Shown here: in pieces, positions 2,810 through 13,278 of the stretch | Position numbering within the stretch: the stretch's first letter is position 1 | Layout: every line of letters begins with the position of its first letter | Virus record (IMG/VR): IMGVR_UViG_3300020045_006994 | Span: 1 to 37,110 of that record | Reading direction: 5' to 3' (one strand) | Length of the DNA stretch: 37,110 bases | DNA from: a virus | Taxonomy: Duplodnaviria; Caudoviricetes | Position numbers and translations under genes: made by a program | The notes under the pieces: model-generated | Told to the model about the DNA's origin: nothing | Database searches by the model: none | The model's input: the letters and a program-made list of their open reading frames with translations, nothing else

Positions 2810-3666
2810 TCACTACTTTTTCTTATCGTCCACATTTCAGAAGCAGGTTTACGGTGCTTTTCTAAATCATAGTCTTTTAATATCTCTATGCTTTTGTAAT
2901 CTACGTTGCCTTTACGTATAGTTCTAGTGATCTTGTAACCGCTTCCTTTTGATGATTTACCATCACATAGGGTAACTACTCTATCGCGCCACATTTCCTT
3001 TTCTTGCTCGAGCAAAACAAATTGTTCCACGGTCTTTTCGTATTGAATCAAAGCATAAGCAAGATCAGCGCTTTCATTGTTAACGTAGTCTTTATCTGTC
3101 AATTCAGGCGGAGTCATACTAACAATATTGTCGAAATAGAAGTCACCACCTATCTTAATGATATCGTTAATCATATCCTGATTGCGTGACACTTCGATCG
3201 TTTCGTATTGTCCGTCATACCAAGCCATGTAAGTCATTGATGAAATACAAAGAACCGCCATCGTATGTTGCATTTGAGCTATATAATACGGCTCTATAAC
3301 TCCTAATTGCGCTTGCTTGTATGTCTTTTCGCTGCATTTGATTTCGCAGGCATATCTTCCGCACTTAGAAACTCCATCACATGATGCCATCATCCAATCA
3401 AGCTTAGGATGAATAAATACACCTGGTTCAAAATTGATCTTTGAAACCTTGTTAAGTTCAGTTCTAGCCATTGGTTCGTTTAACGTGCCGTATTCCATGC
3501 GAAAGTTAGACTTTTGCGGTTCGATAAGCTCCATTTTTTCGCTCCACAACTGAAACTTCGTCTTAAATGGATTAAGACCTAGCAGTACGCCACTATCAGT
3601 GCTAGTTATTTTCTGTCGACGTAAGGCCAGCCATTCGGCCGACCCTTGTGTAATATTAAGACTCAA
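2806..3666 (-). CDS. YqaJ/lambda-exonuclease family recombination nuclease
   Basis: QGSAEWLALRR..ITSTD, G...EP.AR, MMASCDG, EIKC, YYIAQMQH motifs; TTG start with SD GGAGG. Confidence 0.93.
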   Translation of the reverse strand: MSLNITQGSAEWLALRRQKITSTDSGVLLGLNPFKTKFQLWSEKMELIEPQKSNFRMEYGTLNEPMARTELNKVSKINFEPGVFIHPKLDWMMASCDGVSKCGRYACEIKCSEKTYKQAQLGVIEPYYIAQMQHTMAVLCISSMTYMAWYDGQYETIEVSRNQDMINDIIKIGGDFYFDNIVSMTPPELTDKDYVNNESADLAYALIQYEKTVEQFVLLEQEKEMWRDRVVTLCDGKSSKGSGYKITRTIRKGNVDYKSIEILKDYDLEKHRKPASEMWTIRKSSD

Positions 3667-3910
3667 CTTTAACCTCCGGTAATTTAGGAAAAGGCATCCA
3701 ATGCGTTATGTTTTTACAAAAATAATCCTGAACTTCATCTATAGATAATCTAAGATCTTTATTTATCTGGTTGTGTAAATAGATTTTATCCAAATACCAT
3801 TTTCTTCCGGTGTATATTGCAACACCCAAAAAATCAGAAGAACTTATAAAAACCTCAGATTGAATCTCGTCAGGCAATCTATCTTTAACAGACACCCATT
3901 CATTCATCAT
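3656..3910 (-). CDS. DUF551 family protein inserted between the recombination genes
   Basis: MNEWVSVKDRLP...ITHWMPFPKLP; SD GGAGG. Confidence 0.88.
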   Translation of the reverse strand: MMNEWVSVKDRLPDEIQSEVFISSSDFLGVAIYTGRKWYLDKIYLHNQINKDLRLSIDEVQDYFCKNITHWMPFPKLPEVKVES

Positions 3911-4694
3911 TTTTAACCTCCGGTTTGCCGGTTTCTTTTTGGTCATTAGCTAATTTAACACGTGCGAATATCTTGTCATACCATGTTGAGGGTAGATCTT
4001 GTAACCTAGAGACATTAAGACTCTTTTTAAGAAATTCTTCAACCTTATCACGTAAGTCTAGGTTTTCACCAATCATGTCGTTTAGAGTTTCAAACTGTTC
4101 TTCCGTAATTGATTTGATTTCCAATTGTTTTGGCGCATCTTGTATCTCAACTTCTGCAAATGCTGGACGTGATCTAGCAATTTCCATAAGCTCGTCTTTA
4201 TCATATCCAGCACCTTTAATTACATCAGGAAATAGCTGACGCGCTAGTGTGGACATGGCTCGGTTGTAAAGCATGATTTCAGGATACTTGTCGAACATGT
4301 TTTTAGCTAAACCAGCTCTCTTGGCATCTTCCCAACTAAAAGAAACTGTCCAAGTATCTCCATTGTCTTTACGTTTACCATGAAGAATGCACTTGGTTGC
4401 ATCGGACTTAGCATCTTTAACAATGCTGTGTCCAGCTTGTCTTATTAACGCCGCCATGCTTTCAGTACTCATGCCCACCTTGCCCTGCACATAGTACAAA
4501 CCACCGTTAAGAGCATCTAGAGGGTCCATTTTCAAGCTTTTCGCCTTCTGTGTAATAGCAAATATCCCAGCTTCTCCCATCGCTTGATAATGTTTAGATT
4601 GCATTAGCTTTCTTGCCATCGTGTACATTTTATCGATGTCATTCAAAATCATGTCATATGATACTTCATCTCTTATCACTACTTCATTGCTCAT
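3900..4694 (-). CDS. RecT/Redbeta-like single-strand annealing protein
   Basis: LDALNGGLYYVQGK, FSWEDAKRAGL, KYPEIMLYNRA...ARQLFPDVIKG pattern; adjacent to the YqaJ nuclease. Confidence 0.8.
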   Translation of the reverse strand: MSNEVVIRDEVSYDMILNDIDKMYTMARKLMQSKHYQAMGEAGIFAITQKAKSLKMDPLDALNGGLYYVQGKVGMSTESMAALIRQAGHSIVKDAKSDATKCILHGKRKDNGDTWTVSFSWEDAKRAGLAKNMFDKYPEIMLYNRAMSTLARQLFPDVIKGAGYDKDELMEIARSRPAFAEVEIQDAPKQLEIKSITEEQFETLNDMIGENLDLRDKVEEFLKKSLNVSRLQDLPSTWYDKIFARVKLANDQKETGKPEVKNDE

Positions 4695-5384: not shown

Positions 5385-5491
5385 GATATTTTTCCTTTCT
5401 TTAAGTTTCCTATTTCCTATTTAAGCTTTCCAGTCTTTAGCTACAGTCCTCGAAGGTGTCTGCGTTAATCGACGTACTTGCTATATGTCCA

Positions 5492-5520
5492 AATTTAACA
5501 AATCCGTCAATTTAAAGCAA
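5492..5520 (-). promoter_or_regulatory. Leftward early promoter (PL-like)
   Basis: Minus strand TTGCTT-17-TAAATT with TGn extension; a TTGACG hexamer is also present. Confidence 0.55.
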
Positions 5521-5532
5521 CACAAATTTGTG
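5521..5532. promoter_or_regulatory. Candidate operator palindrome
   Basis: CACAAATTTGTG, a perfect palindrome between the divergent promoters. Confidence 0.4.
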
Positions 5533-5546
5533 AAATAAGATCGATA

Positions 5547-5575
5547 TTGTAAAATAATGACGATTTTGGTATACT
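5547..5575 (+). promoter_or_regulatory. Rightward early promoter (PR-like)
   Basis: TTGTAA-17-TATACT with TGn extension. Confidence 0.65.
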
Positions 5576-5604
5576 GGTTTTTTATGCATGATAAGGAGGA
5601 TTTT

Positions 5605-5787
5605 ATGCAACTAAAGCAATGGTTGTTTGAGAACAGAAAAACAATAAGTGAATTTGCTATCCTGACAGGATTCAGTAGAACTTCAGTTACTTCTATCTTA
5701 AGCAAGAAGATCAAACCGAGTGAAAGATTCTTATACGAGATTGATAAAGCTACAAATGGTCAGGTTAAAAAGGAAGATTTGATATGA
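5605..5787 (+). CDS. Cro-like XRE helix-turn-helix regulator
   Basis: SD AGGAGG; MQLKQWL...TISEFAILTGFSRTSVTSILSKKIKPS...ATNGQV. Confidence 0.85.
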   Translation: MQLKQWLFENRKTISEFAILTGFSRTSVTSILSKKIKPSERFLYEIDKATNGQVKKEDLI

Positions 5788-6017
5788 TTAGATGGAATCA
5801 TATAAGGGATAAACAACCTGAAAGAGGGAGATCGATCGTTAAGATTACTCAACATGGAAAGGAATTTTATACGATAAACATCAAGAAATACGACAAATCA
5901 GGACGTTTTGACGCATATATCCAACATTGCCAAGAGTTAAATATTCCTAGTTCTTTCTTTTGGTGGGTTTACGCAGAAGATTTCCCTTTTCCGGATAAGG
6001 TGGTTAACGATGAATGA
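5784..6017 (+). CDS. DUF551-like hypothetical protein
   Basis: WNHIRDKQPE N-terminus and WWVY...FPFP C-terminus. Confidence 0.65.
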   Translation: MIRWNHIRDKQPERGRSIVKITQHGKEFYTINIKKYDKSGRFDAYIQHCQELNIPSSFFWWVYAEDFPFPDKVVNDE

Positions 6018-6345
6018 ATGGATTGATTGTGAAGAAGAGAAAAGACCTGAATCCGTATTCGATGTATGTTTAGTAACAGATGGAAAATTATCATGTCTTG
6101 CTTATTATATAGAAAATCCCATGCAATATTATGAAACACATGAAAATAATGATAAAGTACTAGTTGAATGGGATGATAACGAAGAGTGTTACATTCCTAT
6201 GGGAGAAGATGCTTATGAATCTCATTGGGAGTTTATAACGGATATAGGACCTTTTATCAGAGGAGATCAAGAATGTTTTGGAGCGATTGGAGAAATAACC
6301 CACTGGATGCCATTACCAAAACCTCCGGAGATGAAAGATGAATGA
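6010..6345 (+). CDS. DUF551 family protein
   Basis: MNEWIDCEEEKRPE...CLVTDG...ITHWMPLPKPP. Confidence 0.88.
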   Translation: MNEWIDCEEEKRPESVFDVCLVTDGKLSCLAYYIENPMQYYETHENNDKVLVEWDDNEECYIPMGEDAYESHWEFITDIGPFIRGDQECFGAIGEITHWMPLPKPPEMKDE

Positions 6346-6956: not shown

Positions 6957-7781
6957 ATGTTAAATGGGTTGGATCTTTTTTCAGGCATTGGAGGAATTTC
7001 CCTCGCACTCAATGAGTGGGTTAGGCCAGTCGCATATTGCGAAATCGATCCCTATTGTCAAGCGGTCATCTTATCTAAAATGGCTACAGGTGACCTGGTG
7101 CATGCCCCAATTTGGGATGATATTAAAACTTTGCGAATCAGACCCCAAGAAATTGATATTGACATCATTTATGGAGGATTCCCATGCCAGGATATCAGCG
7201 TTGCAGGAAATGGAAAAGGTTTGGCAGGAGAGCGAAGCGGGTTATTTTTCGAGATCATTCGCTTGGTCGCTGAAATCAAGCCCAGATTCATATTCCTGGA
7301 AAACGTTCCAGCAATCACAACCCGTGGGGGATTGGAAGTTGTTAGAACGATTGCCGAAATGGGGTATGATTGTAGATGGTGTGTTATATCCGCTGCGTCC
7401 GTTGGAGCGTTACATCGTCGCGAGAGATGGTTCCTATTGGCCCACTCCACAAGAAAGAGCTCAAACCGATACACCTTCGGAGAGGATGAGACACACACCT
7501 TGCTTAGAAACTCAAGTGTTATTAGCGACACCGACAGCAAGCCAAGCGAACAAACCAATAAGGAAACCGAGTCCAAGCAGGCAGAAAAAAGAACATGGGG
7601 AAGATCTACAAGACAGTATTGGCCGTTCGAATCCCGAGATGATTGGAAAAAAACTGTGTCCGAAATGGGTAAGTGTACTAATGGGATATCCGGAAACGTG
7701 GACAAACTTAGAGCGCTTGGAAATTCCGTCGTGCCTGCTCAAGTTAAAGAAGCATTTCAACTTTTAATGGGGATTAAATGA
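6957..7781 (+). CDS. dcm: C5-cytosine DNA methyltransferase, alpha chain (motifs I-VIII and X)
   Basis: LDLFSGIGG (I), GGFPCQD (IV), LENV (VI), HRRERWF (VIII), LRALGNSVVP (X). Confidence 0.93.
   Translation: MLNGLDLFSGIGGISLALNEWVRPVAYCEIDPYCQAVILSKMATGDLVHAPIWDDIKTLRIRPQEIDIDIIYGGFPCQDISVAGNGKGLAGERSGLFFEIIRLVAEIKPRFIFLENVPAITTRGGLEVVRTIAEMGYDCRWCVISAASVGALHRRERWFLLAHSTRKSSNRYTFGEDETHTLLRNSSVISDTDSKPSEQTNKETESKQAEKRTWGRSTRQYWPFESRDDWKKTVSEMGKCTNGISGNVDKLRALGNSVVPAQVKEAFQLLMGIK
6964..7767 (+). CDS. Nested +1-frame partner (beta chain: target-recognition repeats and motif IX); true start may be internal
   Basis: 267 codons open inside dcm; WPTP and LATPTASQA repeats; LCPKWVSVLMGYPETWT motif-IX-like segment. 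Confidence 0.75.
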   Translation: MGWIFFQALEEFPSHSMSGLGQSHIAKSIPIVKRSSYLKWLQVTWCMPQFGMILKLCESDPKKLILTSFMEDSHARISALQEMEKVWQESEAGYFSRSFAWSLKSSPDSYSWKTFQQSQPVGDWKLLERLPKWGMIVDGVLYPLRPLERYIVARDGSYWPTPQERAQTDTPSERMRHTPCLETQVLLATPTASQANKPIRKPSPSRQKKEHGEDLQDSIGRSNPEMIGKKLCPKWVSVLMGYPETWTNLERLEIPSCLLKLKKHFNF

Positions 7782-8062
7782 ACATCTTTAAAAATGTTTT
7801 AAATAAGTTACAGATAGGAAAAATAAATATTATAGAAAATGATCGGAAAGATAAAAAAATTGCGGAACAGTTAGAGAAAACACTTAATTGGCATGTTGTG
7901 AAGAGCAGATCTGATTCAAACCCATTCGATGGTTGCCCAATGGGTCAAATCTTATGTCGAAATATTGAAGAAGCAAAAGAATATGTTGAAAATTCAACAT
8001 TCAATGATCTTTACATAGAGGATTATTCAAAAATTAACACAAATCTTGATTTGAATATATAA
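7778..8062 (+). CDS. Hypothetical protein (AT-rich)
   Basis: 94-aa ORF starting at the end of dcm. Confidence 0.65.
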   Translation: MNIFKNVLNKLQIGKINIIENDRKDKKIAEQLEKTLNWHVVKSRSDSNPFDGCPMGQILCRNIEEAKEYVENSTFNDLYIEDYSKINTNLDLNI

Positions 8063-8071
8063 GGAATTTAA

Positions 8072-8272
8072 ATGAATAAAGACGATTGGATAAAGATTAA
8101 CCCTATACCTGACGATTATGAAGAGTGTGAAATTCTTTTAAAGTCAGGTAAAATAATAAGTGGATGTAGCTTTGAATTAAATAACAAAATTTTCCATCAT
8201 TTTACAGGTGATTTTTGTGGCGGTTATTCAATTAACTCTGTTGATTCTTGGAGAAGAAAATATCAAGAATGA
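8072..8272 (+). CDS. Divergent DUF551-like protein
   Basis: SD AAGGA; DDWIKINPIP...EILLKSG...VDSWR. Confidence 0.6.
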   Translation: MNKDDWIKINPIPDDYEECEILLKSGKIISGCSFELNNKIFHHFTGDFCGGYSINSVDSWRRKYQE

Positions 8273-8293
8273 AGGAGAATTATTTAGAAAATC

Positions 8294-8322
8294 TTGATTT
8301 GAATCTCTGAGTCAGGTATTCT
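8294..8322 (+). promoter_or_regulatory. Promoter of the replication initiator operon
   Basis: TTGATT-17-TATTCT. Confidence 0.6.
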
Positions 8323-8334
8323 CGAGAAACGTTG

Positions 8335-8420
8335 AACGAATCCCCGGGGTAGGAAATACCCCGGGGACACCATAGGAAATAAGAGCTAGTAAACTTGACC
8401 GGTTTTAGCATCTTAGGAAA
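8335..8420 (-). ncRNA. Putative cis-antisense RNA to the initiator leader
   Basis: Minus-strand promoter TTGTCA-17-(TGa)TACAAT at 8427-8455; GC hairpin 8341-8367 as probable 3' end. Confidence 0.55.
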
Positions 8421-8554
8421 AACTTAATTGTATCATGATCCGCAAATTATGACAACAAGATAACTTAAATCACAATTAAGTTCAAGTCCTAAGAGCAAAA
8501 ATCTTCAAGTACTGATCTATTTTCCTAATTAAACAAATCATTTAATAGGTAAAT
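8341..8554 (+). promoter_or_regulatory. Structured 5' leader of the initiator gene
   Basis: 10-bp hairpin 8341-8367; long imperfect hairpin 8373-8527; alternative SD-sequestering hairpin 8519-8554. Confidence 0.7.
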
Positions 8555-8555
8555 C

Positions 8556-9503
8556 ATGTCAGATCAAACTTTTTCTACTATACACCACACATTCGACATC
8601 TATGTAGCAGCCGTTTATGGTGTAAATGAAGCAATTATTATCAATTATTTCCAATATTGGATTGATTTCAATATGAGGACGGGGAAAAACTTCAAAGAAG
8701 GAAGATTTTGGACATATGACCCTATAAAAACAATTGCCGCTCACTTTCCATACTTCACGGAAAATGATGTTAGAGAAATAATCGAACGATTATGTACAGG
8801 AAAAAGTAGGCGAGGAAAAGGAGAGCCAGAGTTTGAGCCGGTGCTAATGAAGGGTAATTTTAACAAGTTAGCTATGGACAAAACAACATGGTATTCATTT
8901 GTAAATCAAAAAATGTTTACGAAAGGGCATTTGCCCACATCGAAGGGGCATTTGCCCAAAGCTATACCACATACAATAACAACACATGCTTTAGCATGTG
9001 ATAACAATGATAAGGCTTGTTCACCTCTTTCTACAGTTTCTATACAAAAGACATTGTCTTCTAAAAAAAACAATATAGAAAAAAAAGAGGTGGTAAAGAC
9101 TTATAAGCTCAATGCCGAACAGCGAGTAGCGTTTGATTGGTTGAAAACTCAAAACATCGACAGCGACGAACAAACATTGTCCTATTGGGCAAAGACCTAC
9201 GACTTCGATCGCTTGAAGAACGTAGTCGCTTGGGCAAAGCGAGAAGAGAGGCAGAGCATAGGAGCTTATATACAAAATCTACTGAAAAAGAACGCCATCG
9301 TTGAAACTCCTAAGCAAAAAGAAAACAAGCAATTAGCAGTAGACTACAAAAGAGAACATCAATGGCATGATTTAACTATACACGAAAGATTTATGTCATG
9401 TAAGAATGATAGAGGACACGACAGAGAAGCGTTCTTTGACGTTGCGCCGGAAACATTCTTTAAAAAACTTTTGGAAATCCATAACTGGTACCTAGGAAAC
9501 TAA
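8556..9503 (+). CDS. Phage replication initiator (lambda O/replisome-organiser-like, N-terminal winged helix)
   Basis: AAVYGVNEAIIINYFQYWI...N..EGRFWTY...HFPYF...GNFNK...DKTTWY; internal iterons; upstream of RusA. Confidence 0.8.
   Translation: MSDQTFSTIHHTFDIYVAAVYGVNEAIIINYFQYWIDFNMRTGKNFKEGRFWTYDPIKTIAAHFPYFTENDVREIIERLCTGKSRRGKGEPEFEPVLMKGNFNKLAMDKTTWYSFVNQKMFTKGHLPTSKGHLPKAIPHTITTHALACDNNDKACSPLSTVSIQKTLSSKKNNIEKKEVVKTYKLNAEQRVAFDWLKTQNIDSDEQTLSYWAKTYDFDRLKNVVAWAKREERQSIGAYIQNLLKKNAIVETPKQKENKQLAVDYKREHQWHDLTIHERFMSCKNDRGHDREAFFDVAPETFFKKLLEIHNWYLGN
8920..8961. repeat. Two 21-bp iterons (putative origin)
   Basis: CGAAAGGGCATTTGCCCACAT / CGAAGGGGCATTTGCCCAAAG, each with a GGGCA-TT-TGCCC dyad. 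Confidence 0.7.
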
Positions 9504-10762: not shown

Positions 10763-10900
10763 ATGGACAAGAAAATTAAGAAGCTAACAGCTGACACTAA
10801 GAAGATCGTTAAAGAAGAAAAGAATCTACTTAAAGCGGATATCAAAAGAGATAAATTCGTAGAAGCCGGGAAAAAAGCCCTAGCAAAAAAGAAAAAATAA
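10763..10900 (+). CDS. Small Lys-rich protein (45 aa)
   Basis: SD AAGGA; MDKKIKKLTADTKKIVKEEKNLLKADIKRDK... Confidence 0.75.
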   Translation: MDKKIKKLTADTKKIVKEEKNLLKADIKRDKFVEAGKKALAKKKK

Positions 10901-11530: not shown

Positions 11531-11659
11531 ATGATAAAAAAACTAATGAATAGGTCACTTTCCTTGCTAGTTTCCTTAGCATACGTTTTATTCATGGCGC
11601 TTTTCCTAGGGTTGTGTGTGGGAGTTTTCATAAAATCAATTATTTGGGTATTCGAATGA
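11531..11659 (+). CDS. Small single-TM membrane peptide (42 aa)
   Basis: SD GAGGT; MIKKLMNRSLSLLVSLAYVLFMALFLGLCVGVFIKSIIWVFE. Confidence 0.65.
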   Translation: MIKKLMNRSLSLLVSLAYVLFMALFLGLCVGVFIKSIIWVFE

Positions 11660-11814
11660 TAAAAACAAAAGAAGAAAAAAAAGAAAGATGTCCTTTAGAT
11701 AAAGGTCATACTCCTAATAAGGAAACTATTGAGTCAATTCAATTAAGCGAAAAAGGGGAAGGCATTAGTCGTTTTAATTCTATGGAAGACCTTTTCAAAG
11801 ATCTGGGTATGTAA
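11656..11814 (+). CDS. Stand-alone RelB/DinJ-like antitoxin C-terminal domain
   Basis: PNKETIESIQLSEKGEGISRFNSMEDLFKDL matches the RelB/DinJ tail PN.eT..ai.e...g.....f.s.edLf.dL. Confidence 0.7.
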   Translation: MIKTKEEKKERCPLDKGHTPNKETIESIQLSEKGEGISRFNSMEDLFKDLGM

Positions 11815-12663: not shown

Positions 12664-12891
12664 TCATTCAGCTTTCTTTAATTGTCCTGAATCTTTAATC
12701 ATGCAGCAATCCTTTGAAACAAAGGCACCTTCCAATCTGCATAACCGGCGGTCAACGTCTGTTAGCTTCTCATCTAGTTTATCAATCCTAGTGTCAATTC
12801 TATCGAAACGACTGTTTATATCAGCCCACATAACAAATATTAGACCGCCAATAGCAATAATCATCGTCATTACGATTTGTATATCCGTCAT
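12664..12891 (-). CDS. Single-TM plus coiled-coil protein
   Basis: N-terminal TM helix, then heptads RFDRIDTRIDKLDEKLTDVDRRLCRLEG. Confidence 0.8.
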   Translation of the reverse strand: MTDIQIVMTMIIAIGGLIFVMWADINSRFDRIDTRIDKLDEKLTDVDRRLCRLEGAFVSKDCCMIKDSGQLKKAE

Positions 12892-13034
12892 AATATTTCC
12901 TTTTTAGTTTTTAAATATTCAGTTACCAACCGACATAACAAGTCAGCCATTGTAACACCTTCTTTCACACATTGAAGTTTCACTTCTTTGTGTAAGTTTT
13001 CGTGTATTCTAATTTGTAATTGTACTTTCTTCAT
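12888..13034 (-). CDS. Ribbon-helix-helix (Arc/ParG-like) regulator
   Basis: KVQLQIRIHENLHKEVKLQCVKEGVTMADLLCRLVTEYL. Confidence 0.85.
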   Translation of the reverse strand: MKKVQLQIRIHENLHKEVKLQCVKEGVTMADLLCRLVTEYLKTKKEIL

Positions 13035-13056
13035 GAAATCCCCGGTAGGGCAGCGC

Positions 13057-13278
13057 TTATCGCGCTGCAAGTTCTAAGTCTATTTCTTCATGTACCATTC
13101 TTTCTTCATATCCAGCTTTAAACCATTTGCAAAGATGCAACGCATTCTTCTCATTAAGTAATTTTCCCATGGTTAAATATAATTCAGTTGTTAATGTTGA
13201 GGATACCTTTCTTGCTTCATATCCTTTAATGAAGGCTGATTCTTCGATGCTTTGTATTGCTGGTTTGTATGCTTTCAT
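13057..13278 (-). CDS. Hypothetical protein, first gene of a three-gene minus-strand operon
   Basis: SD AAGGAG; 73 aa. Confidence 0.75.
   Translation of the reverse strand: MKAYKPAIQSIEESAFIKGYEARKVSSTLTTELYLTMGKLLNEKNALHLCKWFKAGYEERMVHEEIDLELAAR

Follow-up and report, generated by a model that had tools for sequence, protein, structure and literature searches.

The leader of the replication initiator gene in a tailed phage carries an antisense-switch layout that is a real, conserved regulatory layout, and it is likely that the initiator is controlled by antisense translational attenuation. The window is the whole of the complete 37,110-nt podophage genome IMGVR_UViG_3300020045_006994, which has direct terminal repeats and 37% GC. 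It encodes a terminase, a P22-type portal, a major head protein, RecE/RecT, a DNA methyltransferase, and RusA. Comparison of 63 ORFs with PHROGs and Pfam searches of the genome revealed no integrase. The gap preceding the initiator gene is 283 nt long and non-coding on the plus strand. The arms of a long helix in this gap, the two predicted folds, and the recurrence of hairpin, promoter, and switch in relatives are observed, and a sense and an antisense transcript are inferred (Table 1).

Table 1. Features of the leader and the initiator gene, with positions in the window.
Feature	Position	Strand	Remarks
Candidate sense promoter, TTGATT-17-TATTCT	8294-8322	+	weak; start near 8329-8330, leader about 226 nt
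Predicted antisense RNA, about 85 nt	8335-8420	-	two stem-loops, loops CGGUCAA and UUUCC
11-bp GC hairpin	8341-8367		arms 8341-8351/8357-8367; likely antisense-RNA terminator on the minus strand
5' arm of on helix	8373-8420	+	covered by the predicted antisense RNA; 8373-8379 is the anti-anti-SD
On-helix arm pair TAGGAAA/TTTCCTA	8373-8379 / 8521-8527
On-helix arm pair ACTTGA/TCAAGT	8393-8398 / 8505-8510
On-helix arm pair TCTTAGGA/TCCTAAGA	8411-8418 / 8487-8494
On-helix arm pair AACTTAATTGT/ACAATTAAGTT	8421-8431 / 8472-8482
Antisense promoter, TTGTCA-17-TACAAT	8427-8455	-	extended -10 TG; best site of the region, 10/12
3' arm of on helix	8472-8527	+	from folding
Anti-SD	8519-8533	+	CCTA 8524-8527 pairs with TAGG 8373-8376 or TAGG 8546-8549
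SD region	8541-8554	+	AGGT 8547-8550; 3' side of off hairpin; from folding
Replication initiator, 315 aa	8556-9503	+	phrog_11233 'replication initiation protein' (E 8.5e-23); phrog_6493 (E 4e-8)
Two iteron-like repeats of 18-20 nt	8920-8960	+	21 nt apart, each with a GGGCA..TGCCC palindrome; at the linker start

Two mutually exclusive folds are predicted for the leader, and the off fold covers the SD. The minimum free energy structure of 8325-8575 (-72.4 kcal/mol) consists of the GC hairpin and the long helix 8373-8431/8472-8527. Its z-score of -7.32 was matched by none of 200 shuffles, and the z-score without the GC hairpin is -5.97. An initial annotation had named the arms of this helix, and all of them lie where it placed them. 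It also proposed an alternative pairing that buries the SD, and this pairing (8519-8533 with 8541-8554) forms in the predicted folds when bases up to 8420 are blocked; the inner stem is retained, and 8543-8549 is then unpaired with a probability of 0.00-0.05. Folding with and without the antisense RNA, the check suggested there, gives the same picture, since cofolding with the 85-nt antisense RNA yields the same off fold as blocking. Opening the SD and start region is predicted to cost 2.9 kcal/mol in the on state and 7.3 kcal/mol in the off state. Blocking 8370-8385 alone raises this cost to 7.6 kcal/mol and is sufficient to flip the predicted state, while blocking the GC hairpin alone gives 2.8 kcal/mol. 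A shift of +4.7 kcal/mol was reached by none of 150 shuffles of the middle stretch. The expectation that the on fold leaves the SD free was borne out in part, as the SD is unpaired with a probability of only 0.1-0.9, depending on the ends chosen.

The layout recurs with different sequence in relatives of this initiator. Homologue loci came from five scans, and three of these each contributed their best 80 confirmed stretches, out of 157, 512, and 205. The first four scans and this phage gave 138 non-redundant proteins, 124 of them with 340 nt of upstream sequence; rows with less than 340 nt were dropped (14/138 and 1/29 non-redundant homologues). A quick tree with a support of 86 for a clade of 79 rows puts 68 of the 124 leaders in the clade of this phage and 56 outside, and new rows were assigned by nearest neighbours. 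A blind script scored each leader for a terminator on the minus strand, for a promoter on that strand at 50-135 nt from the terminator, and for how far the SD-opening cost changes when the interval is blocked. The thresholds of this three-part test, with a shift of at least 3 kcal/mol, were set after viewing the first table and then fixed for 28 new homologues. In the first set, 25 of the 68 clade leaders have the layout and 2 of the 56 outside; with fixed thresholds, it is found in 8 of 19 new clade leaders and none of 9 outside. The totals are 33 of 87 clade relatives and 2 of 65 distant homologues, which are not independent events because the relatives share kinship. The test was failed by 54 of the 87 clade leaders. 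The layout is absent from all 74 other genes with intergenic leaders that were scored in these loci and in this phage. The logic put forward initially, in which antisense binding frees the anti-SD and shuts off translation, holds in predicted folding, and the whole arrangement is present in those 33 relatives.

The terminators of the clade lie mainly on the minus strand. In the first set, 53 of 68 clade leaders have a minus-strand terminator and 16 a plus-strand one, and outside the clade the numbers are 15 and 13 of 56. Strong T-tails are found on the minus strand in 34 of the 68 (4 on the plus strand) and in 4 of the 56 outside (6 on the plus strand); over both sets, they occur on the minus strand in 47/87 clade relatives and on the plus strand in 4/87. 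Among 53 real leaders with a terminator, 28 show a shift of at least 3 kcal/mol and 18 one of at least 5 kcal/mol; the corresponding counts among 318 shuffles are 4 and 0. An antisense promoter at the matching position scores at least 8.5 in 50 of 67 relatives (462 of 1340 shuffles). The predicted antisense RNAs of the relatives are 52-129 nt long, with a median of 89 nt.

Some members and neighbours of the family depart from the full layout. Leaders L006, L010, L044, and L059 show no shift. Two others (L147, 2804-2994, and L148, 1328-1524) have a terminator and a counter-promoter, yet their SD hairpin is predicted to be shut in either state, and they may be activated by another route. The three-part layout also scores in a Paraclostridium-labelled contig (L125, 2775-2976) and a Spirochaetes-labelled one (L093, 427-647), which fail the strict test. 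Among cultured relatives, none of eight regions passes (seven phages and one plasmid, from 94 phage and 47 plasmid records matched). In four Vibrio phages with a distant homologue (L289, L291, L292, and L294, about 1445-1512), the sequence immediately ahead of the SD contains a promoter-like site together with an A-run and a GC hairpin. They represent two sequence versions, and the long switch is absent; this is a shorter, possibly OOP-like arrangement in culturable phages.

The anti-SD follows the SD across leaders that are otherwise unrelated in sequence. The leaders are mostly unalignable, and only about five pairs align. Even so, the anti-SD mirrors the SD, with the combinations CTCC/GGAG, TTCCTT/AAGGAA, and ATCCTC/GAGGAT. 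Direct pairing of the anti-SD with the antisense-covered arm is seen in the on ensemble of 21 of the 39 leaders with terminator and shift and is not seen there in the other 18; it is also present in one of three near-miss leaders added by hand. In one pair (L150/L036) both arms and the SD differ yet remain complementary, and in another (L012/L154) a G-C pair of the on helix is swapped for an A-U pair. Over whole folds, six leader pairs have 0-6 both-sided changes and 2-23 broken pairs per fold, so the covariation is suggestive only. These SD-tracking segments would be left unexplained if the palindromes worked as DNA, forming a cruciform or protein sites near the origin with the RNA folds as by-products. 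Perfect 11-bp inverted repeats are present as that explanation would have it, but G-U pairs and bulges make the long helix imperfect, and the iteron-like repeats are within the gene and not in the leader. We consider a role as DNA very improbable.

The signals for the two transcripts are of unequal strength in this phage. The candidate sense promoter scores 9.2 in a separate scan, below the cut-off of the promoter/terminator scan, which did not flag it; in relatives, a sense promoter is found in 21 of 39 leaders and 156 of 780 shuffles. Read-through from upstream plus-strand genes is another possible source of the leader transcript. The minus-strand promoter of the initial annotation is present and is the best of its region, but promoter-like sites number 8 there and 6.1 +/- 2.2 in shuffles, so on its own it is not above chance. 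Its -10 falls within the inner stem of the on helix. Similarly, the hairpin at which the antisense RNA was said to end is present, but its minus-strand T-tail is weak (4 T in 8) and the scan did not flag it as a terminator. The predicted antisense RNA has a fold z-score of -4.38 and a net cofolding energy with the leader of -88.5 kcal/mol. A look-up of sequencing runs gave no RNA run with this stretch and one DNA run, which covers only 9187-9429. YUNR motifs are not enriched in sense loops (15 of 39 leaders, 16.1 expected); they occur in antisense-strand loops in 24 of 39, counted without a matched null. In Rfam, the best match to the window is unrelated (E 0.23), and there were no gathering-score matches in 16 loci, ctRNA families included.

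A 23-nt direct repeat (87%) at 8041-8063 and 8289-8311 gives the candidate sense promoter a second copy of its -35 region. It brackets the ORF 8072-8272, as though this ORF had arrived as a cassette.

The weakness of the local signals would also suit a two-state leader that works in cis, without antisense RNA, and is thrown by folding kinetics, a protein, or temperature. The GC hairpin would then merely protect the 5' end or stop read-through from the right. The relatives argue against this. Minus-strand promoters of the TTG type that score at least 8.5 and lie 50-135 nt from the terminator are found in 42 of 67 of them and in 226 of 1340 shuffles, and the terminator T-tails sit on the minus strand. 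In addition, the on fold beats the summed separate parts by about 17 kcal/mol or more, so a strong competitor is needed to displace it. We consider a switch working in cis alone quite unlikely.

Antisense translational attenuation would proceed as follows. A transcript from about 8329, or one reading through from upstream early genes, would carry the leader. The 5' arm would fold first as its own small hairpin and would be captured by the 3' arm once about 8495-8527 has been transcribed. The on helix would then hide the anti-SD and leave the SD weakly structured. The antisense RNA (about 8420 to 8335) would bind the 5' part of the leader most readily before this capture; binding therefore probably takes place during transcription. 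The freed anti-SD would close over the SD and turn initiator translation off. Under constant synthesis and rapid decay, the level of the antisense RNA would follow genome dose, and this would give negative feedback on initiator supply and hence on firing of the origin within the gene. The transcription, kinetics, and decay assumed here are modelled on plasmid systems. The switch most likely serves to limit the number of genome copies, either while the phage is carried without integration or early in infection, and its purpose may be copy-number control rather than lytic timing.

Control is most likely at the level of translation, because the off hairpin has no U-tail and a leader peptide is not conserved. 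A T-run (at least 6 T in 8) near the start was found in 3 of 39 switch leaders, and none was flagged here, which does not fit a transcriptional attenuator of the pT181/pIP501 type. A leader peptide of the R1 CopA/tap type is likewise not indicated: this leader has no SD-led upstream ATG, and one is found in 7 of 39 switch relatives, where a common pattern is absent. In pT181 RNAI and pIP501 RNAIII, as described in the part of PMC5703833 consulted, the antisense RNA prevents a pre-emptor helix and a downstream hairpin forms that terminates transcription. The phage leader resembles these in that antisense binding would block one helix and permit a downstream hairpin, but its hairpin covers the SD.

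The antisense RNA could instead act mainly on the message, through RNase III cutting of the 85-bp duplex or through convergent transcription, with the SD hairpin secondary. Terminator and promoter occur together in 50 of 87 clade leaders and the shift as well in 33, so leaders with the first two and no predicted shift are common. There is also a phage precedent in lambda OOP, a 77-nt self-terminating counter-transcript (tO-oop-pO) that overlaps cII at its 3' end and affects CII through RNase III cleavage of the cII-O mRNA, according to the sections of PMC3349717 consulted. Unlike oop, the antisense RNA here overlaps no gene, and decay alone needs neither an anti-SD nor its capture by the covered arm, which are kept across unrelated sequences. 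We consider message decay as the main effect unlikely.

The closest known system to the proposed switch is RNAI/RNA1 control of the staphylococcal RepA_N plasmids pSK41, pSK1, and pSA564, which is nearer than lambda OOP. In the portions of PMC5703833 and PMC8129170 consulted, pSA564 and pSK41 have an RNAI (RNA1) counter-transcript of 83 nt, with two stem-loops of which the second is the terminator, and the pSA564 leader is 197 nt. One CC pairs with an upstream or a downstream GG and so decides between on and off, and the antisense -10 lies inside the on stem. The phage leader has about the same length (about 226 nt), a putative counter-transcript of about 85 nt, and a long on helix that encloses the antisense -10. 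Sequence signals for a counter-promoter and a terminator bound a 50-130 nt RNA over the 5' arm, and the CC at 8524-8525 pairs with 8375-8376 or 8548-8549. Both systems have origin repeats in the linker of a winged-helix initiator of about 315 aa. The differences are that the element here is a tailed phage with a P22-like portal, that its leader has no sequence likeness to the plasmid leaders, that its initiator has no RepA_N Pfam match and it is not a RepA_N replicon, and that the off structure of pSA564 has, in the same sources, a proposed second role as a terminator. The open-access literature searched yielded no account of a pSK41-type switch in a tailed phage.

Other phage systems share fewer features with this one. 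The initiator gene repL of the P1 lytic replicon is reportedly controlled by an antisense RNA, a finding ascribed to Heinrich et al. in 1995. In both cases the antisense RNA is directed at a phage initiator with the origin inside the gene, but P1 has kilA upstream of repL and a C1-controlled P53, as far as PMC9948254 covers the region, and the initiators are unrelated. Lambda OOP is also a short self-terminating counter-transcript, and it lies just ahead of a phage initiator gene that contains an iteron origin. The antisense RNA here lies wholly in a non-coding leader, cII and CI are absent, and no anti-SD switch is described for OOP in the part of PMC3349717 consulted. The lambda oop class was rejected, since the leader is non-coding on the plus strand, RusA follows the initiator, and the S24 repressor domain was found in none of 15 complete switch-bearing records.

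The ORF following the leader appears to be an initiator-like winged-helix protein with iteron-like repeats in its linker. Its cultured homologues are annotated as replication initiation proteins. In the structural model (pLDDT 75), a winged helix at the N terminus is joined by a disordered linker (124-180) to a C-terminal part that is helical. No Pfam family matched at E <= 0.01, which includes the RepA_N domain (PF06970), and Foldseek gave no match to the model at E <= 0.001. The fold resembles chain 4pta_D, 'MDR initiator' (Z 8.0, rmsd 4.3, 100 aligned), tied with CRP-type domains. We take 4pta and 4pql to be RepA_N structures. The linker repeats are likely to belong to the origin, and in 23 of 37 switch-bearing relatives repeats are found in the middle of the gene, compared with 1 and 2 of 37 in the gene ends. 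The initial annotation called the initiator lambda-O-like; the internal repeats agree with this, but no helicase loader follows the gene, which is followed by the RusA gene.

Gene content of the family fits either a multicopy plasmid prophage or a lytic phage that limits early replication, and we judge these near even, as absence of an integrase also fits a lytic phage. The portal type of this phage is common to 28 of 32 records tested. Among 15 complete switch-bearing records, 13 have neither a tyrosine recombinase nor a serine resolvase, and the exceptions have one 306-aa tyrosine recombinase and one small serine resolvase. Short HTH matches are present in 10 of the 15, while ParA was found in none of the 10 switch-bearing complete records tested. 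Of 46 records searched, 8 have a small resolvase. One clade member, L059 (record G026), has ParA, a small resolvase, and a short leader without the long switch, and it is likely to be a phage-plasmid. Extrachromosomal mycobacterial prophages with RepA or RNA-based origins are known, and a switch of this type is not described for them in the portion of PMC7157519 consulted. Open-access literature on a chlamydial host gave nothing relevant among the matches listed.

Antisense copy-number switches are a plasmid hallmark. Here the full pSK41-type parts list is found on another initiator family, with its structure kept in tailed phages that mostly lack integrase and CI. A speculative reading, which we think rather doubtful, is that this 34-41 kb podophage family persists as plasmid prophages without repressor or integrase. 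The antisense RNA alone would set copy number and, as it differs per lineage, would be the incompatibility or immunity determinant against close relatives, and lytic growth would begin once the RNA is outpaced by read-through from the upstream early operon. The layout offers a sequence-level route to candidate plasmid prophages that gene-based screens miss, and it provides about 40 naturally orthogonal candidate RNA switches that can be tested in reporters without the host.

Several other genes of this genome have unusual features. A divergent promoter region (5385-5787) has a single 76-aa Cro-like HTH protein and no CI gene on the opposite side. An Arc/ParG-like ribbon-helix-helix protein (12891-13070, minus strand) is encoded in a small leftward operon ahead of the packaging genes and could be a regulator or a plasmid-type maintenance gene. 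A 52-aa ORF (11656-11814) is similar to RelB antitoxins over their C-terminal half (E 0.003, below the cut-off) with no adjoining toxin match, and may be an anti-defence decoy. A lysine-rich 45-aa ORF without a family match (10763-10900) is histone-like in composition. Five small phrog_924 paralogues are found at 1358-2139, 3656-3946, and 6010-6345. Two overlapping plus-strand frames, 6957-7781 (274 aa) and 6964-7767 (267 aa), both match DNA methyltransferase PHROG families and form a two-frame methyltransferase.
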